DNA of 64,000 bases from NCBI GenBank assembly GCA_017472225.1, contig JAFUQS010000062.1, forward strand, positions 10,825 through 74,824, written 5' to 3'. Below, one piece after another: positions 1 to 10,166 of the stretch. A program made the translations under genes and the position numbers. The DNA is from Clostridia bacterium (lineage in GTDB: Bacteria > Bacillota > Clostridia > Oscillospirales > Acutalibacteraceae). Position 1 is the stretch's first letter. Every line of letters starts with the position of its first letter. The notes under the pieces are model-generated. The model was not told where the DNA came from. It saw only the letters and a list, made by a program, of their open reading frames with translations, and did not search any database.

Positions 1-1873
1 GGAAGTAGCCCTTGAAAAGACCACAGGGTACTTTTTTGTCTGTTCTGACAACAATTTCACCTGTTTCACCAACAGGACAGGGATTACCGTCAAGGTCAAC
101 AATATCGATATCATATCCGGGAACAGGCTTACCCATTGCACCCGGCTTCGGAGTTGTTCCGATAAGGTTTCCGATTGTAAGGGTGGTCTCAGTCTGTCCG
201 AAGCCTTCCATAATCACAAGACCGGTTGATTTTTGGAACTGATAGAATACCTCGGGATTGAGCGCTTCACCGGCTGTTGTCGCATATCTGATTGATGAAA
301 GATCATACTTTGAAAGATCTTCCTTAATAAGCATTCTGTACATTGTGGGAGGTGCACAGAAGGTTGTGATGTTGTACTTGGCAAACATCGGTAGGATCTC
401 TGAAGCGTCAAATCTGTCAAAGTCATAAGTAAATACTGCACCTTCACTCATCCACTGACCGTAGAATTTACCCCACATTGCCTTACCCCAACCTGTGTCA
501 GAAATTGTAAGATGAAGGTCTGTCGGCTGAACTGAGTGCCAATATTTTGCTGTTACAAAATGACCGAGGGCATATTTATATGAGTGAGTGGCAATCTTGG
601 GATAACCTGTTGTGCCGGAGGTGAAGAACATAAGCATTTCATCATCACCGCAGGCTGTATCCTCTTCACGGTTGAAGATACTTCTGAAGAGCTTATACTC
701 TTCATCAAAGCTGTGCCAGCCTTCTCTTGAGCCGTTGACAATAATTTTAAGGCTGAGTCCGTCATAGCTTTCACTTGCAAGGTCAACCTGATTTGCAGTT
801 TCACCGTCTGAAGTACAAAGGATAGCCTTAACACCGGCAGCCTTGAAACGATACTCAAAATCGTGAACAACAAGCTGATTTGTTGCAGGGATAATAACAG
901 CACCAAGCTTGTGGAGAGCAAGAGCAGTAATCCAGAACTGATAGTGACGCTTGAGAACGAGCATAACTCTGTCGCCCTTGGTGATACCGAGGCTCTTGAA
1001 GTAGTTTGCAGCTCTTGCAGACTCTTTCTTCATATCCTTGAATGTGAAACGTCTTTCTGTCTTGTCGTTTGAAATATGAAGCATTGCAAGCTTATCGGGG
1101 TACTTATCCGCAACAGCATCAACAACATCGAAAGCAAAGTTGAATTTATCTTCATCCTTGAAGCTGATATCCTTGAGAATGCCGTTTTCATCCTCAGTGG
1201 TTTCAACAAACTTTTCAACAACAAGATGGTGCTGTGTTTTTGCAGCAACCTGAGCTTCGTTGACGATCTCCTGAACAGGAGCCTCATCGCCTGCAATAAC
1301 AACAGCGACGAATGTGCAGTCCTGACCGTCAACAGCAATCATGCCGTGAGGCGCAGAGCTCTTATAGTAGATACTGTCCCCTTCTTCAAGGATTTCTGTA
1401 TGCTGACCAATCTGAACCTTAAGCTTACCGGAAAGCACATAGTCAAATTCCTGACCGCTGTGAGTTGTTGTGCTGATAGGCTTGTTCTGAAGCTCTTCCT
1501 TATATTCGTATTTTGCAAGATAAGGTTCAGCAAGCTTATTTCTGAAAAGAAGAGCAAGGTGATTGATTTCAATGCCTTCATCATCTTCCTTTGAAGTGAT
1601 CTTACCCTGTCCCTTTCTTGTTACTGTATATGATGAAAGGTTACTGCTTCTGCCTTCAAGAAGGTCGGTTTTACCAATACCAAACACCTTTGCGCACTTA
1701 TGGATAAAAGAGAAGGGAAAATCATCTGCACCGGCTTCATATGAAACATATTCTTCAAGGCTGATTTCAACCTTTTCAGCCATCTCCTCCTGAGTATAGC
1801 CGGCAATTTCTCGCATTTCCTTAATTCGGAAAGCCACCTCTTTAAGTTCGTTGTTCATTTTGTTGAGTTCCAT
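1..1873 (-). CDS. Fusion protein: XRE-type HTH + cupin domain + AMP-forming acyl-CoA synthetase (medium-chain/ACS-like). The C-terminus lies beyond the left window edge.
   Basis: Absent from the ORF track because there is no stop codon in the window. Manual minus-strand translation from ATG 1873 (SD CAGGAGG at 1884-1890) showed no stop in every stretch checked codon by codon (about 1021-1873) and reads on to nt 1. It gives MELNKMNNELKEVAFRIKEMREIAGYTQEEMAEKVEISLEEYVSYEAG (HTH), HSGQEFDYVLSGKLKVQIGQHTEILEEGDSIYYKSSAPHGM (cupin), then FAFDVVDAVADKYPDKLAMLHISNDKTERRFTFKDM, MFFTSGTTGYPK and MEGFGQTETT (adenylation motifs). The ORF-track entries in 12-1806 are off-frame shadows. Confidence 0.85.
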   Translation of the reverse strand, partial: MELNKMNNELKEVAFRIKEMREIAGYTQEEMAEKVEISLEEYVSYEAGADDFPFSFIHKCAKVFGIGKTDLLEGRSSNLSSYTVTRKGQGKITSKEDDEGIEINHLALLFRNKLAEPYLAKYEYKEELQNKPISTTTHSGQEFDYVLSGKLKVQIGQHTEILEEGDSIYYKSSAPHGMIAVDGQDCTFVAVVIAGDEAPVQEIVNEAQVAAKTQHHLVVEKFVETTEDENGILKDISFKDEDKFNFAFDVVDAVADKYPDKLAMLHISNDKTERRFTFKDMKKESARAANYFKSLGITKGDRVMLVLKRHYQFWITALALHKLGAVIIPATNQLVVHDFEYRFKAAGVKAILCTSDGETANQVDLASESYDGLSLKIIVNGSREGWHSFDEEYKLFRSIFNREEDTACGDDEMLMFFTSGTTGYPKIATHSYKYALGHFVTAKYWHSVQPTDLHLTISDTGWGKAMWGKFYGQWMSEGAVFTYDFDRFDASEILPMFAKYNITTFCAPPTMYRMLIKEDLSKYDLSSIRYATTAGEALNPEVFYQFQKSTGLVIMEGFGQTETTLTIGNLIGTTPKPGAMGKPVPGYDIDIVDLDGNPCPVGETGEIVVRTDKKVPCGLFKGYF

Positions 1874-1910
1874 TTTACTTACGCCTCCTGACAAAAGAAA
1901 ATTTTTAAAC

Positions 1911-1945
1911 AAAAAACTCGTCTCAAAGAATAACTTTGAGACGAG
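1911..1945 (-). terminator. Intrinsic terminator of T-box leader 1
   Basis: Minus-sense CUCGUCUCAAAG-UUAUU-CUUUGAGACGAG (12 bp perfect stem, 1917-1945) followed by U6. Its 5' arm overlaps the T-box antiterminator region. Confidence 0.85.
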
Positions 1946-2190
1946 CAATAAACTAATGTTATACCCGCGGTACCACTCAAATTGCGATTCAAAATCGCCA
2001 CCTCAAGCTCCAACAAGCCCTATGCATTAACGCAGCAATCACGAAAGGTATCTACTTATCAAAGATGTTCGGACCTTCAGCTCAGAAGTGATAGGAAAAT
2101 GAAGGGTTGTTTATCGGCTTTCCAGCACCGCCGACTCTCTGTAAAACGCTGACTTCTTCCGTCTTCGTCATAGCTTTTAATATTTAATTT
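1911..2190 (-). promoter_or_regulatory. T-box riboswitch leader, specifier AUC (Ile)
   Basis: Minus-sense elements in order: K-turn/base AGCUAUGACGAAG...CUUCUGAGCU; AG bulge plus distal loop AGAGAGUCGGCGGUGCUGGAAAGCCGA; specifier loop U-AUC-A directly before the lower helix CUUC (codon at 2090-2092); Stem III GCGAUUUUGAAUCGC; T-box core AAUUUGAGUGGUACCGCGGG (1964-1984) with a UGGU bulge (pairs with discriminator A73); then the terminator. Confidence 0.8.
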
Positions 2191-2196
2191 GATGAC

Positions 2197-2225
2197 ATTT
2201 TAGCACTTTAAGAAATTAAAGTCAA
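2197..2225 (-). promoter_or_regulatory. Sigma-A type promoter for T-box leader 1
   Basis: Minus-sense TTGACT (2220-2225), 17 nt spacer, TAAAAT (2197-2202), preceded by TGc (extended -10). Confidence 0.65.
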
Positions 2226-2244: not shown

Positions 2245-3048
2245 TCAGATTTTTTCAATTGAAAACAGCTTCATAGCATTTTTATAAAGGATTTTCTCCT
2301 CCTCTTCCTGTGTAAGCTTCATGGATTTGAAGGCTTTGTATTCTTCTTCATGGCTCCACATAGGAAAATCAGTTCCGAAAACAACCTTATCTGCGCCGTA
2401 AAGTCTGATGAGCTCTCTTACCTCACAGGGCGGAAGCCAATTAAAGGTTGAGCAGCAGTCAACATAAAAGTTTTCATAGTCATGCAGCTTTTCAGCCGCC
2501 TCTTTCCAGCAGGACCAACCGCCGAAATGAGCACCGATAACAGTAAGATTTTTATGCTTTTCCAAAACATTTTTCACTCTGTCCGGATTTGAAAAATCAT
2601 ACCTGATATCTCCCGTATGAAGAAGCACGGGAAAAACACCCTCGCACAAACTGTATATTCTGTCGCACTTAGGGTCATCAATGCAGAATTTTTGAAAATC
2701 AGCATGTAATTTGATGCCCTTGAGACCAAGCTCTTTTATTTTTTCAATGTCTTTTTCAATCTCATAGGAATCAGGGTGCAGCGTGCCAAGACCGGTCAAA
2801 AGTCCGTTTGATTTTTTCACGGTGTCAGCAATGAAGGTGTTTATGGAGTTCACCTGATGAGGAGTTGTTGCAACTGAAAAGACCACATAATGCTTAACTC
2901 CGATTTTATTACCGCTTTCTATAAGTGAAGAATATCTTCCGTCATGGTACATTGCCAAATCATAAAAATCTGCAATCCCCCGCACTGCCCTATCTGCAAT
3001 TTTATCAGGATAAATATGGCAGTGACAGTCAATTATCGGATAATTCAT
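2245..3048 (-). CDS. Amidohydrolase-2 family (ACMSD-like metal-dependent hydrolase/decarboxylase) protein
   Basis: 267 aa. N-terminal IIDCHCHIYP (HxH metal motif), KLHADF, LLHTGD and FGTDFPMW are typical of the PF04909-type TIM-barrel amidohydrolases. Confidence 0.7.
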   Translation of the reverse strand: MNYPIIDCHCHIYPDKIADRAVRGIADFYDLAMYHDGRYSSLIESGNKIGVKHYVVFSVATTPHQVNSINTFIADTVKKSNGLLTGLGTLHPDSYEIEKDIEKIKELGLKGIKLHADFQKFCIDDPKCDRIYSLCEGVFPVLLHTGDIRYDFSNPDRVKNVLEKHKNLTVIGAHFGGWSCWKEAAEKLHDYENFYVDCCSTFNWLPPCEVRELIRLYGADKVVFGTDFPMWSHEEEYKAFKSMKLTQEEEEKILYKNAMKLFSIEKI

Positions 3049-3083: not shown

Positions 3084-3111
3084 CAGGTGCACCGAAAAAT
3101 CGGAGCACCTG
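3084..3111. other. GC-rich intercistronic stem-loop between the ligase fusion and the amidohydrolase
   Basis: CAGGTGC-A-CCGA-AAAA-TCGG-A-GCACCTG. Flanking T4/A4 extend the stem. A U-tract follows it only in the plus sense (AAAATTTTTT), not in the sense of the operon. Confidence 0.5.
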
Positions 3112-3119
3112 AAAATTTT

Positions 3120-5639
3120 TTATGCAGTTTCAACTGAATTTGCTTTCTGAAGGCCGTATTTTTCAATAGCCTCTTCACGCATTTTATATTTAAGAATTTT
3201 ACCGGCAACATTCATCGGGAAGGAATCAACGAAATCAACATATCTGGGAACCTTATGCTTAGCCATATGATCTCTTACATACTGCTTCATTTCATCCCCG
3301 GTCATGCTTTCGCCTTCCTTAAGAATAATGCAAGCAGCAATTTCCTCACCATACTGCTCATCGGGTACACCGATAACCTGAACGTCGCTTACCTTCGGAT
3401 GTGTATAGATGAATTCTTCGATTTCCTTCGGGTAAATATTTTCACCACCACGGATAATCATATCCTTGAGTCTGCCTGTAATACGGTAGTTACCGTCCTC
3501 TGTTTTGCAGGCAAGGTCACCTGTATGAAGCCAACCTTCCTTATCAATTGCGGAAGCTGTTGCCTTGGGCATTTTGTAATAGCCCTTCATAACATTATAT
3601 CCTCGTGCAACGAATTCGCCCGTTACACCAACAGGAAGGTCCTCACCTGTTTCAGGATCAACTATTTTACATTCAATTTCGGGAAGTGCCCTGCCAACAG
3701 TACTTACTCTGACCTCGAGGGAATCATCGGTTGAACTCATGGTACAGCCGGGAGAAGCCTCTGTCTGACCGTAAACAATCGTGATTTCATCCATGTGCAT
3801 CTTGTCAACAACATCCTTCATAACTGAAATCGGACAAGGTGAACCAGCCATAATACCTGTTCTCATGTGTGAGAAGTCAGTTTTCGGGAAATCCGGATGC
3901 TCAAGCATTGCAATGAACATGGTGGGAACACCGTGGAAGGCAGTAATCTTCTCCTGATTGATACAAGCAAGAGACGGCTTCGGTGTGAAATACGGAAGCG
4001 GATAAAGTGTTACACCATGAGTCATTGAAGCGGTCATTGCAAGAACCATACCGAAGCAATGGAACATAGGCACCTGAATCATCATTCTGTCAGCAGTGGA
4101 AAGGTCCATTCTGTCACCAATGCACTTGCCGTTATTAACAACATTGTAGTGAGTGAGCATAACACCCTTGGGGAAGCCTGTTGTTCCCGATGTATACTGC
4201 ATATTACAAACATCGTTCGGGTCAACATTGGCAGCAATTCTGTATACCTCTTCAACGGGAACATTTTCGCTTCTTTCAATCGCTTCTTCCCATGTAAGGC
4301 AGCCTTTTTTCTTGAAACCGACCGTAATAACATTTCTGAGGAACGGAAGACGGCGACAATGGAGAGGCTGTCCCGCTTTTGTTGTTTCAAGCTCAGGACA
4401 AAGCTCTCCGATAATATCGGCATAATGTGAATCACGATAGCCTTCAACAAGAATAAGGGTGTGAGTATCAGATTGTCTGAGGAGATATTCAAGCTCATGA
4501 ATTTTATAAGCTGTGTTAACAGTTACAAGAACAGCACCGATTTTTGTTGCAGCCCAGAAGGCAATATACCATTGCGGAATATTCGTTGCCCATACTGCAA
4601 CATGACTGCCCGGCTTCACACCAAGAGCAAGAAAAGCACGGCAACATTCGTCAACATCATCACGGAACTGGGCGTATGTTCTTGTGTAATCAAGTGTTGT
4701 ATATTTAAAAGCATACTGGTCAGGGAATTCCTCAACCATCTTATCAAGCACCTGAGAGAAGGTCTTTTCAATAAGAGCTTCTTTTTTCCAGACATAATTA
4801 CCTGTGCCTCTGTTGTTGGTGTAAAGATGGCTCTTTTTTCTTGATGGAGCCTGAAACTTTTGCATGAACTGAACAAAATGCGCAAAAATAACATCAATTT
4901 CGGTGAGATCAGGCATCCAATCAGGATTCCATTCAAGAGAAATAAAGCCACTGTAATTTATAGATGAAAGTGCATTGATTACAATGTCAACCGGCACCTC
5001 ACCTTCACCGATAAGGCAATACTCACGCTCACCGTCAATTACTGCTGAGTCCTTAAGATGAACATGCTTGATGTAAGCACCAAGATTTGTGATAGTAGCC
5101 TCAGTATCCTCCTGTTGTTCACAGAATGTATGATAAACATCCCAAAGTGCCGCAATTGAATCACTTGCGAACTCCATAAGAACATCACGCAATGCAGCTG
5201 TGTCAGCAAACATACCGCAGGTTTCAATAAGAATTGTTACATTCTTTTCAGCAGCATAAGAAACAATTTCAGAAAGACAAGCAACTACATTCTCTCTTGC
5301 ATTTTCATCGTTGCCCGAAGCGTAAACTCTTACATAAGGAACACGTATTCCTGCTGCAAAATCAATGTTACGGATAATATACTTTGCATTTTCTTCAACG
5401 CTCTTTGAGGAAATATCTGTACTGATATCAACACAAGGCACAGTAATTCCGGCATCGTTAAGCTTACGCATTGTTGCGGCTGAATTATATTTGTGGAAGG
5501 GACCGTTTTTGTAGGAAAGCTCAGAATCCAGAACATTATGAAGTTCTATACCCTTATAGCCGATTTCTTCTGCAAGAGCTGTGAAATCCTGCCATGAATA
5601 TTCCTTCCAACCGTTAATTGAAAAAGAAAGCTTCATCAT
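3120..5639 (-). CDS. Fusion protein: xylose-isomerase-like TIM barrel (sugar phosphate isomerase/epimerase, AP_endonuc_2-type) + AMP-dependent acyl-CoA synthetase/ligase
   Basis: 839 aa. Residues about 1-265 read GYKGIELH, ILIETCG, WDVYH, HVHLKD, ISLEW (TIM-barrel metal-site pattern). Residues about 280-839 read MQYTSGTTGFPKGVMLTH, YGQTEASP, WLHTGDL, GRLKDMIIRGGENIYPKEIE, GKILK (adenylate-forming superfamily). The SD GAGGAGG lies inside the last codons of the upstream gene, with a 3 nt gap, so the two are translationally coupled. Confidence 0.85.
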   Translation of the reverse strand: MMKLSFSINGWKEYSWQDFTALAEEIGYKGIELHNVLDSELSYKNGPFHKYNSAATMRKLNDAGITVPCVDISTDISSKSVEENAKYIIRNIDFAAGIRVPYVRVYASGNDENARENVVACLSEIVSYAAEKNVTILIETCGMFADTAALRDVLMEFASDSIAALWDVYHTFCEQQEDTEATITNLGAYIKHVHLKDSAVIDGEREYCLIGEGEVPVDIVINALSSINYSGFISLEWNPDWMPDLTEIDVIFAHFVQFMQKFQAPSRKKSHLYTNNRGTGNYVWKKEALIEKTFSQVLDKMVEEFPDQYAFKYTTLDYTRTYAQFRDDVDECCRAFLALGVKPGSHVAVWATNIPQWYIAFWAATKIGAVLVTVNTAYKIHELEYLLRQSDTHTLILVEGYRDSHYADIIGELCPELETTKAGQPLHCRRLPFLRNVITVGFKKKGCLTWEEAIERSENVPVEEVYRIAANVDPNDVCNMQYTSGTTGFPKGVMLTHYNVVNNGKCIGDRMDLSTADRMMIQVPMFHCFGMVLAMTASMTHGVTLYPLPYFTPKPSLACINQEKITAFHGVPTMFIAMLEHPDFPKTDFSHMRTGIMAGSPCPISVMKDVVDKMHMDEITIVYGQTEASPGCTMSSTDDSLEVRVSTVGRALPEIECKIVDPETGEDLPVGVTGEFVARGYNVMKGYYKMPKATASAIDKEGWLHTGDLACKTEDGNYRITGRLKDMIIRGGENIYPKEIEEFIYTHPKVSDVQVIGVPDEQYGEEIAACIILKEGESMTGDEMKQYVRDHMAKHKVPRYVDFVDSFPMNVAGKILKYKMREEAIEKYGLQKANSVETA

Positions 5640-7118: not shown

Positions 7119-7156
7119 AAAAAAATCCTTGAAATTACAGAACGTAACTTCAAGGA
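7119..7156 (-). terminator. Intrinsic terminator of T-box leader 2
   Basis: Minus-sense UCCUUGAAGUUAC-GUUCU-GUAAUUUCAAGGA (13 bp, one GU pair) followed by U7. Confidence 0.85.
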
Positions 7157-7395
7157 CGAATAAAATCCGTGGTACCACCTTGTTTACCGCAATATTACGG
7201 TCACTCTTCAAGACTCTGACAAGTCTTTAGCCATGATAACGGGGCATCCGTGACTGCCTACACAACAAATTGCCTTCAACAGTCCTGCTCGGAAATGAGA
7301 CTGAATAATCATCTCGTATCGGTTCGCACCAACCACCGACTCTCTTAAACCAAAGAATAAAAATTCATAATTTCGTCAACGCATTTGTGATATTG
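7119..7395 (-). promoter_or_regulatory. T-box riboswitch leader, specifier CUC (Leu)
   Basis: Minus-sense elements: base UGCGUUGACGAAA...UUUCCGAGCA (K-turn-like GA motif); AG bulge/distal loop AGAGAGUCGGUGGUUGGUGCGAACCGA; specifier loop GU-CUC-A directly before the lower helix UUUC (codon 7297-7299); Stem II GACUG...CAGUC; Stem III AAGACUUGUCAGAGUCUU; T-box core AAACAAGGUGGUACCACGG (7165-7186) with a UGGU bulge; then the terminator. Confidence 0.8.
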
Positions 7396-7401
7396 AAATG
7401 C

Positions 7402-7430
7402 ATTTTATCATAAAGAATAAAAAATGTCAA
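7402..7430 (-). promoter_or_regulatory. Sigma-A type promoter for T-box leader 2
   Basis: Minus-sense TTGACA (7425-7430), 17 nt spacer, TAAAAT (7402-7407), preceded by TGa (extended -10). Confidence 0.7.
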
Positions 7431-7460: not shown

Positions 7461-8093
7461 TTATTTTGTGCCGAAAATTCTGTCACCTGCATCACCAAGT
7501 CCGGGAACGATATAGCCGTTTTCATTGAGCTTCTCATCAAGCGCAGCACAGTAAACATGAACATCAGGATGTGCTTTTGTAAAAGCTTCAATTCCTTCAG
7601 GTGCAGCAATTATGCACATGAAACGGATTGAACGGGGCTTTCTGAGTTTAATTTGGGACACAGCATCTATACCTGAGCCACCTGTTGCAAGCATCGGGTC
7701 AACAACAAAAACATCTCTTTCGCCGATATCCTTGGGAAGCTTACAATAATATTCAACGGGCTTGAGTGTTTCCTCATCACGGTAAAGTCCGATATGACCT
7801 ATTCTGCATGAAGGTACAAGACTTGTTATACCGTCGACCATGCCGAGACCTGCACGGAGAATGGGTACAACAGCAAGCTTTTTGCCACATATATGCTTAA
7901 CCGTTGTTTTGCAAATAGGTGTTTCAACCTCAACAGCCTCCAAAGGAAGCTCTCTGGTTGCTTCATAACACATAAGAGTTGCAATTTCTGAAACAAGAGC
8001 ACGGAAATCCTTTGAGCTTGTTTCTTTATTTCTGAGTATGGAAAGCTTATGCTGAATAAGCGGATGATCAAAAACAGTTACATTGTTATACAT
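7461..8093 (-). CDS. upp: Uracil phosphoribosyltransferase
   Basis: 210 aa. [35 protein letters not shown] and DPMLATGGS are characteristic of Upp. SD AGGAAA lies 7 nt upstream. Confidence 0.93.
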
Positions 8094-8249: not shown

Positions 8250-9563
8250 ATGAAAAAACAAAAGCGCAAGAAAAAAGGTTGTCTTATTGGTCTCAGTGTT
8301 ATCGCAATTATGCTCGTTGCAGTAATTATTGCCGCTTCGGTTCTGCTTCCCGGAATTGACACAGGCGGATACCGTTACATCGCAATCAATGCAGGAACAT
8401 CCTTCCTGAAAAAACAATCGAGCAGTGAAGTTGACGCACTGCTTCAAAAAACAGGCGGCTTCATAAAGGGTGTATGCCACCCGAATGAAAATTATGAGCA
8501 AATCAAGGACGCCAACATCGAATGGGTGAGATTTGATCTTACTTCACTTCCTTATGACGAAAACGGCAACCTTACACAGGGATATAAAGACTTCAAGGAG
8601 CGTGCCAAGGGTTATGCCGACAACGGAATGAAGGTTATGTGCGTCACCCAATATCCTGAAGTGTACATAGAAGCGGGACTCGACCCGAGAGAGGCTGCAA
8701 GCAAAACAAAAATTCAGGAATATGCCCGTTTCATTGCTGAGGATCTTCAGGGAATCGTTCACGCTTTTCAGATTACAAACGAAATGGGTATTGAGCATTT
8801 CACTCTTCCGCTGACTCTCGATGAAGCTGCAGAATATATCGGCATACAGCTTGAAGCCATGTACGATGTCAGAGGTGATATAATCATCGGCTTCAACTGT
8901 GCCGGTGGCGCAATTTATACACTCGTTGAAAAAATGCAGCCCTACCTTGAATACTGTGACTATGTTGCCCTTGATCTTTATCTCGGTTGCTTTGAAAACA
9001 TGTTCAAGGACATATGGGTATATAACGGTATTCTCAGATATCTGTGGAGCTACACCGGAAAGCCCATTATTCTTAATGAATTCGGCTACATGGGATACGG
9101 TGATGTTAAAAGCGATGAGCAAAAGCAGGAAATTCTGCGTACCTACGGTGTTGAAAGTGAAGAAGAAGCAAGAAAGGATATATTCGCTTTTATCGATAAT
9201 CTGCCCAAGGATTTCAAGGAGCATATGCTGAGTCTTGAATATTCAGATGAAAAAGAACTTGCAGACAAGCTGTTTGACACAGAACTTGCCAATCATCTAT
9301 ACAGAGAAATTCAGGGTGGTTATCAATTAACGGACTACCGCCATACTCCTGAGGATCAGGCAAGATTCTTCACAGATACCATTGCGGGAATAAGAGAACT
9401 CGATTTCCTTTGCGGTGCAATTGTTTATTGCTACAGCGACAGTGATGCCTGTTATATATGCGGACAGGAGGATTGCCCGATTGAAACCGGATGGGGGCTT
9501 GTGGATTTACACGGTGAACCAAAGCCGGCATACTATGCCGTTCAGAAAGCATTTGAAAACTGA
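8250..9563 (+). CDS. Membrane-anchored glycoside-hydrolase-like protein (clan GH-A TIM-barrel pattern)
   Basis: 437 aa. One N-terminal TM helix. Candidate acid/base ITNEMG and nucleophile ILNEFGY are spaced as in GH5-like enzymes. The family is not resolved by eye. Confidence 0.4.
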   Translation: MKKQKRKKKGCLIGLSVIAIMLVAVIIAASVLLPGIDTGGYRYIAINAGTSFLKKQSSSEVDALLQKTGGFIKGVCHPNENYEQIKDANIEWVRFDLTSLPYDENGNLTQGYKDFKERAKGYADNGMKVMCVTQYPEVYIEAGLDPREAASKTKIQEYARFIAEDLQGIVHAFQITNEMGIEHFTLPLTLDEAAEYIGIQLEAMYDVRGDIIIGFNCAGGAIYTLVEKMQPYLEYCDYVALDLYLGCFENMFKDIWVYNGILRYLWSYTGKPIILNEFGYMGYGDVKSDEQKQEILRTYGVESEEEARKDIFAFIDNLPKDFKEHMLSLEYSDEKELADKLFDTELANHLYREIQGGYQLTDYRHTPEDQARFFTDTIAGIRELDFLCGAIVYCYSDSDACYICGQEDCPIETGWGLVDLHGEPKPAYYAVQKAFEN

Positions 9564-9725: not shown

Positions 9726-10166
9726 TTATTTGATGAATTTCTGACTTTCTTTCACTGCGAGTTCATCACATCTTTCATTTTCCGGGTGGCCGGCATGACC
9801 CTTTATCCATTCCATCACAACATCGTGCTTTTCAATCAGTTCAAGAAGCTCAGCCCAAAGTTCAGGATTTAAAGCCGGCTTTTTATCCTTCTTTTTCCAG
9901 TTATTAGCCCGCCATGATTGTGCCCATCCTAAGGTTATGCCGTTAAAAACATATTGTGAATCAGTAATTATTTTCACCTTACAAGGCTCCTTCAGTGCCT
10001 TGAGACCTTCAATGACAGCCGTCAGCTCCATACGATGGTTTGTTGTATGCTCCTCCCCGCCGGAAAGCTCTTTGCGTTTTCCCTTATAATCAAGAATTGT
10101 TCCCCAGCCTCCGGGTCCGGGATTACCTGAGCAGGCACCATCTGAATATACAGTAACTTCTTTCAT
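9726..10166 (-). CDS. rnhA: Ribonuclease HI
   Basis: 146 aa. VYSDGACSGNPGPGGWG, TNHRMEL, ITDSQY, WIKGHAGHPENERCDELA. Confidence 0.93.
   Translation of the reverse strand: MKEVTVYSDGACSGNPGPGGWGTILDYKGKRKELSGGEEHTTNHRMELTAVIEGLKALKEPCKVKIITDSQYVFNGITLGWAQSWRANNWKKKDKKPALNPELWAELLELIEKHDVVMEWIKGHAGHPENERCDELAVKESQKFIK

Follow-up and report, generated by a model that had tools for sequence, protein, structure and literature searches.

A leucine T-box-controlled fusion of a TIM barrel to an acyl-CoA ligase in gut and rumen Clostridia, a candidate for isovalerate activation

We describe an 839-amino acid protein encoded in a 64,000-nucleotide stretch of a Clostridia bacterium genome (family Acutalibacteraceae; contig JAFUQS010000062.1, positions 10,825 to 74,824; hereafter the window, whose numbering is used throughout), in which a xylose-isomerase-like TIM barrel is joined in a single reading frame to an ANL acyl-CoA ligase. 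The gene lies behind a leucine T-box and directly downstream of a catalytically dead paralogue of LeuA, and the protein is best described as an ANL ligase joined to an uncharacterised barrel that was once an independent partner. On balance we think it probable that this fusion performs the acid-activation step in a leucine salvage route, with a ligase half that takes isovalerate and a barrel that serves as a non-catalytic accessory module.

A single-frame fusion widespread in Clostridia

The fusion gene (3120..5639, minus strand) contains no internal stop, and Pfam assigns three domains to its product: AP_endonuc_2 (PF01261) at residues 21-240 (E 2.4e-28; 99.9 bits against a cut-off of 31.1), AMP-binding (PF00501) at residues 300-688 (E 2.8e-93; 313.2 bits against 29.9) and AMP-binding_C (PF13193) at residues 739-814 (68.4 bits against 24.5). 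A preliminary description of the locus had called this a genuine fusion with a complete ligase, including P-loop, hinge and C-terminal lysine, and the motifs concerned (ILIETCG, WDVYH, HVHLKD, ISLEW, YTSGTTGFPKG, YGQTE and GKILK) can all be read in the translation. The ANL core motifs YTSGTTGFPKG, YGQTE, HTGDLA, GRLKDMIIRGGENIYP and AGKILK are invariant across 40 fusions, and very many other columns of the ligase domain are invariant in the same alignment. In the linker, residues 264-270 are modelled with low confidence, and Y273, N275 and G280 are invariant among the fusions. An AlphaFold2 (AF2) model of the full-length protein (pLDDT 81, pTM 0.63) has a low-confidence linker and is not one from which domain packing, or the relative orientation of the two active sites, can be read.

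More than 120 full-length homologues of 833-843 amino acids, 70-93% identical and named only "AMP-binding protein", share this set of three Pfam domains, and fused frames occur in hundreds of genomes; the single frame is therefore not an assembly artefact. A hidden two-gene arrangement in the window was likewise rejected, as the frame is open and conserved and holds none of the frameshifts or stops that would have split it. When the barrel alone was used as query, relatives turned up in 178 of 301 genomes sampled evenly across the order and in 205 of 399 across the class, most of them within open fused frames of 820-900 amino acids spread over hundreds of genomes. The named fusion records are metagenome-assembled genomes from gut and rumen, including Acutalibacteraceae, Oscillospiraceae, Ruminococcus, Faecousia, Lachnospiraceae and others. 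Fusions of this barrel to an AMP-binding domain are thus widespread in Clostridia, typically with the dead LeuA gene upstream, and a literature search found no description of the architecture, in keeping with the initial remark that no characterised enzyme was known to have it.

Leucine T-box control and branched-chain context

The leader upstream of the fusion's operon (the Leu unit) is a T-box by every feature examined: its RF00230 score, its specifier CUC-A, the T-box sequence GGUGGUACC and its terminator are all present (Table 1), which bears out the leucine control proposed on first inspection. For specifier reading, 16 T-box leaders were aligned, several of them confirmed by Rfam. All 11 leaders that stand ahead of a fusion or its dead LeuA gene specify leucine (CUC in 10, CUG in 1), and those ahead of ligases with helix-turn-helix (HTH) and cupin domains N-terminal to an MbcS-like ligase read AUC (Ile; the window and locus L051) or GUA (Val; L051). 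In L051 (6360-16872) three consecutive T-boxes, CUC (Leu), AUC (Ile) and GUA (Val), are followed by a branched-chain aminotransferase (BCAT) gene, one switch per amino acid; the first gates the dead LeuA and fusion genes and the other two each gate an HTH-cupin-MbcS-like ligase. A tryptophan T-box (UGG) was seen at L045:8066-12552 (minus strand), where split ligase and barrel genes come 177 nucleotides after a 457-amino acid PALP (TrpB-like) gene; this T-box was not counted as control of the ligase, as it stands ahead of the PALP gene.

The first gene of the Leu unit encodes a LeuA paralogue that reads ITLKQAAK at the RDGEQ site and Q-C-S at the H-x-H site, two motifs that we take to be those of LeuA and on which we call the paralogue catalytically dead. 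Its NCBIfam scores fall far short of every LeuA cut-off, the best being 319 bits where 532 are required, and its LeuA_dimer domain is highly conserved. This gene is translationally coupled to the fusion, whose ATG-ATG start lies 3 nucleotides past the dead LeuA stop codon and whose ribosome-binding site, GAGGAGG, sits inside the last dead LeuA codons. Among fused loci with enough upstream sequence, a dead LeuA gene stands directly upstream of the fusion in 28 of 30 loci in one count and in all 78 of 78 in another.

Downstream of the fusion, an Amidohydro_2 homologue is found in 29 of the 61 loci with enough sequence on that side; the closest solved relatives of the window's Amidohydro_2 protein are uncharacterised proteins and ACMSD/LigW-type decarboxylases, with weak E-values. 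The adjoining unit has an isoleucine T-box (the Ile unit) and continues along the contig in the order HTH-cupin-MbcS-like ligase, ParA-like gene, 2-oxoacid:ferredoxin oxidoreductase alpha, beta and gamma genes, and class IV aminotransferase (BCAT). POR_N/PFOR_II, TPP_enzyme_C, POR gamma and Aminotran_4 domains are all encoded on the same strand within 9 kb, ligase, oxidoreductase and aminotransferase thus standing together as expected of a carboxylation module, and the neighbourhood of ligase, oxidoreductase and BCAT recurs in 5 of 10 wider loci (L051, L052, L055, L056 and L058). The context is firmly branched-chain, and the homologues did not prove to belong to a pathway unrelated to branched-chain amino acids. 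A sugar pathway, for its part, was rejected, with no sugar kinase, transporter or dehydrogenase in any locus examined.

A proposed step in leucine salvage

Biochemical work on rumen bacteria established that leucine can be formed by carboxylation of isovalerate (Allison et al. 1962, 1966, as cited in PMC7356843), and MbcS of Staphylococcus aureus accepts 2-methylbutyrate and isobutyrate but takes isovalerate poorly (PMC10026030). Poor use of isovalerate by MbcS-type ligases would account for a separate ligase family on the leucine branch. Together with the Leu specifiers and the classical carboxylation route, this leads us to read the ligase half as a putative isovalerate-CoA ligase, gene context being what suggests both the acid and the CoA ester as product. 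A literature search found no genetic description of this isovalerate route.

In the scheme we propose, uncharged tRNA-Leu would cause the T-box to allow transcription of the Leu unit, and the C-terminal ANL domain would convert isovalerate (3-methylbutanoate), ATP and CoA to isovaleryl-CoA. The adjoining 2-oxoacid:ferredoxin oxidoreductase would turn isovaleryl-CoA into 4-methyl-2-oxopentanoate by reductive carboxylation, from which the adjacent class IV aminotransferase would then form leucine.

Origin of the barrel and erosion of its metal site

The barrel on its own is modelled with high confidence (AF2; pLDDT 96, pTM 0.92), and Foldseek relates this model, at probability 1.0 and TM scores of 0.7-0.8, to Art22, AsbF, D-psicose and other ketose 3-epimerases (DPEase and relatives) and UlaE, at 13-23% identity. 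Its sequence gives weak matches to PDB chains, the best being MJ1311 at 3e-06, and a literature search on Art22 and YngI returned nothing relevant. With neighbours this distant and sequence matches this weak, no reaction can be transferred to the barrel. Alignment to D-tagatose 3-epimerase (8xiv) places E139, D167, H194 and E236 of the window barrel at the E/D/H/E positions of that enzyme, so the metal-site pattern noticed earlier is indeed kept in this copy.

Stand-alone relatives of the barrel (253-287 amino acids, 30-36% identical to that of the window) offer a view of its past. In 13 genomes, known as split pairs from coordinates and with four of the loci examined closely, the barrel gene adjoins a stand-alone ligase gene whose product shares 54-62% identity with the ligase half of the fusion. 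The ligase gene comes first in every such pair, whereas in the fusion protein the barrel does. One such locus, L047, has an Amidohydro_2 gene next to the pair and a T-box-like leader, under the Rfam threshold, with a T-box sequence and CUC-A. All 5 genomes tested that have an unlinked stand-alone barrel encode a ligase orthologue at another site. Across the 301 genomes of the order a ligase orthologue (E <= 1e-150) is present in 171, against 178 for the barrel, and per-family tallies are nearly alike for the two (for example 2/18, 1/17, 3/12, 5/17, 8/18 and 0/17 in both). Comparison of the two tables gives about 166 genomes with both, 5 with the ligase only and about 12 with the barrel only, several of the latter being weak matches or fusions truncated at the edge of a contig. 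Genomes that are related do not count as independent samples, and we treat this co-occurrence as a pattern and not as a statistic. The split pairs and the co-occurrence indicate that barrel and ligase were partners before they were fused.

The unlinked stand-alone barrel lies next to guaB (IMP dehydrogenase) in 3 of 6 loci (L041:8904-10442, L044:6450-7922 and L048:8877-10349), an adjacency that may be synteny only. Other neighbours of unlinked barrels are CtsR, MscL, a methyltransferase, a DeoR regulator and a radical-SAM protein; like guaB, these count as housekeeping genes, and they give no clue to an ancestral reaction.

Alignment of 45 barrels of the even sample with MAFFT shows the EDHE tetrad intact in 10 of 10 stand-alone barrels and in all three fusions without a dead LeuA gene (L037, L038 and L057). 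Among fusions with a dead LeuA gene it is intact in 14 of 32 and broken in the other 18, in the forms ENQV, ENLV, EQQV, ENRA, SNRA, KDHE, KHHE, EDHI, ENHE, ENHV, ESHV and EEHV. The tetrad is likewise broken in 25 of the 80 named loci and intact in 55, and the close set formed by the window protein and its 70-93% identical homologues (n = 121) contains 61 EDHE, 25 EDHD and 21 KDHD. Genomes with a broken tetrad have one barrel match each at E <= 1e-10, with no second copy, and compensation by another barrel was rejected on this ground.

Change at the barrel face goes beyond the metal ligands. Ten positions conserved to at least 92% in ancestral-type barrels (that is, stand-alone barrels and fusions without dead LeuA) are replaced across the dead-LeuA clade: C11, P12, R34, G35, N141, H170, R173, K239, R240 and G249. 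Nine of these are replaced in the window barrel, which keeps H170. Most lie just past beta-strand ends in the barrel model, the region that forms the catalytic face of a TIM barrel, and the residues newly found there are themselves conserved (W11, H/Y34, N/D35 and P239). Barrel identity is 30-50%, versus 69-79% for the ligase half, and barrel dN (nonsynonymous divergence) is 3-6 times that of the ligase half. Even so, E32, N185-L186-G187, D197, G213, P216 and W237 are invariant among the fusions, no truncation or deletion of the barrel is seen across hundreds of genomes, and omega (dN relative to synonymous divergence, dS) is about 0.06-0.2, a rough figure with dS saturated in most pairs; these values indicate that the barrel of the present protein is under purifying selection. 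In one group (L050-L053), fusions of about 820 amino acids have a tetrad of ENRA or SNRA and a shortened barrel end; their barrels sit on a very long branch (2.13 changes per column), and their ligase halves are 68-69% identical to that of the window.

A quick maximum-likelihood tree of the barrels, computed with the four ligand columns left out and rooted by assumption, has one branch parting stand-alone from fused barrels (Shimodaira-Hasegawa-like approximate likelihood ratio test support 98) and places the dead-LeuA fusions in a single clade (support 100) on a long stem (0.65), with the three fusions that have no dead LeuA outside it; at least 4 changes of tetrad state are required. These patterns suggest a history in which the barrel would have begun as a metal enzyme in its own right, one that was this ligase's partner even then, and would have been fused to it once. 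Recruitment of the dead LeuA, with its leucine-binding domain kept, directly upstream would then have been followed by remodelling of the barrel's catalytic face, and the metal site would have been lost repeatedly thereafter.

What the barrel may do now

Because the tetrad is lost in many orthologues with the same gene context, and in the absence of a second copy, barrel catalysis appears dispensable for the conserved role of the fusion, and the barrel of the present protein is most likely a non-catalytic accessory or regulatory module. It could be an adaptor that allows the dead LeuA to subject the ligase to feedback by leucine. Taking this further, dead LeuA and remodelled barrel might together form a leucine-responsive allosteric brake on the ANL ligase, the stand-alone barrel being the older sensor or partner; we offer this as a tentative idea and would sooner doubt it than rely on it. 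Such a brake, if real, would be a form of feedback control so far undescribed among adenylate-forming enzymes. A predicted complex of dead LeuA with the barrel domain scored 0.01 (mark 0.32), which counts neither for nor against binding.

The preliminary description had taken the fusion to imply channelling between the ligase and an isomerase- or lyase-type step. For a bifunctional enzyme of this kind, in which an intact barrel would carry out a metal-dependent isomerisation, epimerisation, dehydration or hydrolysis on the substrate or product of the ligase, the broken-site lineages would have to have changed pathway or to use another enzyme. The fold does match active isomerases, epimerases and dehydratases, purifying selection acts on the barrel, tetrad and H170 are intact in the window copy (the tetrad also in the majority of named loci), and the stand-alone relatives, all of which keep the site, adjoin the ligase or co-occur with it. 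Set against this, orthologues in the same context have lost 1-3 of the 4 ligands in at least four lineages without a second barrel being found, the dead-LeuA clade, window copy included, has replaced R34, G35, N141, R173, K239, R240 and other ancestral face residues, and the barrel evolves several times faster than the ligase. Isovalerate and isovaleryl-CoA, moreover, would seem to offer no obvious chemistry to a barrel enzyme of the keto-enol type. Channelling through the barrel is therefore unlikely, and it cannot be the conserved role of the fusion, given the replacement of the tetrad in both samples; it could apply at most to copies with an intact E/D/H/E site.

Weighing the leucine-salvage reading

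Several observations weigh against an isovalerate ligase with a non-catalytic barrel as we have proposed it. On the ligase side, the top NCBIfam model, PRK12583 (NF009233), is matched over model positions 11-555 of 558 at 717.1 bits, under the cut-off of 832, so that membership in that family is not reached, and the nearest solved relatives are feruloyl-, fatty-acyl- and malonyl-CoA ligases; the ligase sequence by itself does not name the acid, and it is gene context across family members that suggests one. On the pathway side, the oxidoreductase and BCAT genes stand behind the isoleucine T-box and not the leucine T-box, the Amidohydro_2 gene of half of the loci has no place in a simple three-step route, and a canonical leuA/leuCD/leuB cluster lies on another contig of the genome, so salvage is not obligatory here. 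As to the barrel, the full E/D/H/E tetrad persists in the window protein, together with H170, and in about half of its relatives, and there may be residual or new activity in such intact-site copies; the ancestral stand-alone barrel, which keeps its site and co-occurs with the ligase, probably did catalyse or bind something relevant. The shared ancestry of the genomes counted and the assumed root of the tree temper the historical argument.

Some of these points could instead be met if the ligase served another end, such as priming of iso-odd branched-chain fatty acids or activation of a different acid (isocaproate, 2-hydroxyisocaproate or a dicarboxylate), with the barrel and the Amidohydro_2 protein processing that compound. 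This would give a place to the Amidohydro_2 gene and to the intact ancestral barrel, both unexplained by the three-step route, and would sit well with an acid assigned from context and with those split ligase-barrel pairs that have no T-box at the Rfam threshold. We nevertheless consider it quite improbable: every fusion T-box read has a Leu specifier, the neighbourhood repeatedly includes oxidoreductase and BCAT genes, these loci also hold MbcS-like ligases gated by Ile and Val T-boxes, and no dehydratase, acyl-CoA dehydrogenase or FabH gene was seen in the loci examined. Most improbable of all, at the level of an outside chance, is that the barrel is a functionless leftover kept only since its removal would disturb folding or expression of the ligase, for although its metal site has been lost repeatedly and it diverges much faster than the ligase half, its omega is well below 1, it is never truncated or deleted, its invariant residues and linker are kept, and its face has been remodelled to conserved new residues and not randomised. 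We thus continue to favour an isovalerate-activating ligase with an accessory barrel.

Features of the locus and its surroundings

The coordinates of the features discussed above are collected in Table 1.

Table 1. Features of the Leu unit and the adjoining Ile unit, in window coordinates
Feature	Position	Strand	Basis or remark
Sigma-70-type promoter of Leu unit	7402..7430	-	TTGACA, 17-nucleotide spacer, TAAAAT, extended TG; 11/12 positions; consensus match only
Leu T-box leader	7149..7388	-	RF00230, 121.2 bits against 93; specifier CUC then A; T-box sequence GGUGGUACCACG
T-box terminator hairpin, Leu unit	7125..7157	-	15-pair stem, then T-run
Dead LeuA paralogue, 470 amino acids	5643..7055	-	HMGL-like barrel and LeuA_dimer regulatory domain
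N-terminal xylose-isomerase-like TIM barrel	4854..5639	-	Residues 1-262; Pfam, AF2, Foldseek
Tetrad codons	E139 5223-5225; D167 5139-5141; H194 5058-5060; E236 4932-4934	-	8xiv alignment
Inter-domain linker	4785..4853	-	Residues 263-285
ANL (FadD/PRK12583-like) acyl-CoA ligase domain	3120..4784	-	Residues 286-839 and stop codon
GC-rich hairpin between fusion and Amidohydro_2 gene	3084..3111	.	No T-run in operon sense direction
Amidohydro_2 protein, 267 amino acids, last gene of Leu unit	2245..3048	-	Pfam
Promoter of adjoining Ile unit	2197..2225	-	TTGACT, 17-nucleotide spacer, TAAAAT
Ile T-box leader, specifier AUC	1916..2190	-	Own terminator at 1946..1916
HTH-cupin-MbcS-like acyl-CoA ligase	1..1948	-	Continues beyond window edge

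The gap between the stop codon of the Amidohydro_2 gene and the -35 box of the Ile unit promoter is only about 20 nucleotides long (2226-2244), and no terminator-like site was found in it, so that transcription of the Leu unit may continue into the Ile T-box. The MbcS-like ligase of the Ile unit contains an in-frame TGA (TGDTA*CDEDGYY) at L009:10760-10762, 63-65 nucleotides before window position 1. Five homologues have tryptophan at this site (TGD[TL]AW[RK]DEDG), and the frame runs on to a normal C-terminus. The TGA is either a nonsense mutation or an assembly error; recoding is unlikely because other genes here end in TGA. Between this ligase and the oxidoreductase alpha gene lies a 220-amino acid ParA/CbiA-like P-loop protein (L009:9644-10306, minus strand), which is kept at the same place in L055 (2004-2669) and L056 (15613-16275) at 57-59% identity. 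On the far side of the Leu unit, a 437-amino acid open reading frame (8250-9563, plus strand) between upp (uracil phosphoribosyltransferase, UPRTase; 8093..7461) and an RNase H gene (10166..9726) has no Pfam or NCBIfam match.

Significance and comparison with known systems

To our knowledge, genes have not been assigned to the isovalerate activation step, although the route has been known since the 1960s. The fusion, switched on by leucine starvation and present in roughly half of the sampled Clostridia genomes, would be the best candidate for that step and could provide a direct handle on the recycling of branched short-chain acids by gut bacteria. Its barrel also offers a well-sampled natural series that appears to lead from a free enzyme through a fused partner to a remodelled and often metal-free module, and the coincidence of this remodelling with the arrival of the dead LeuA may make it a tractable case of pseudoenzyme domains recruited to regulate metabolism.

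The fusion is most like the FadD, ACSF2 and PRK12583 ligases, with which it shares complete AMP-binding and AMP-binding_C domains, the adenylation motifs, the catalytic lysine and a whole-length match to PRK12583. It differs from them in its score below the family cut-off (717 versus 832), in the 285-residue N-terminal extension carrying the TIM barrel, in its leucine T-box control and in its pairing with a dead LeuA. We know of no characterised member of these families with an N-terminal TIM barrel.

With MbcS and the HTH-cupin-MbcS-like ligases the fusion would share its logic, that of an ATP-dependent ligase turning an exogenous branched short-chain acid into a CoA ester, and the HTH-cupin ligases resemble it further in being gated by a matching T-box and in having a non-ligase N-terminal domain of about 270 residues. 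That domain is a TIM barrel in the fusion, however, and an HTH plus cupin in the MbcS-like proteins. The ligase domains belong to different ANL subfamilies (about 23-25% identity between MbcS-like ligases and fusion homologues), and MbcS handles alpha-branched acids and isovalerate only poorly (PMC10026030).

Barrels of the ketose 3-epimerase type (D-tagatose and D-psicose 3-epimerases, UlaE, AsbF, IolI, Art22 and MJ1311) match the fusion barrel in fold and in the E/D/H/E positions. The fusion barrel, in contrast, is 13-23% identical to them, stands outside any sugar operon and is partnered with an acyl-CoA ligase; many of its orthologues have lost the tetrad, and its site is lined by residues unlike those of the sugar enzymes and of its own stand-alone members. 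A physiological parallel is the classical isovalerate-to-leucine route of rumen bacteria, which shares the habitat of the fusion (gut and rumen Clostridia) and the same predicted steps of activation, ferredoxin-dependent reductive carboxylation and transamination. That route was defined by labelling and not by genes, and the present work would, by inference, assign a gene to its activation step.

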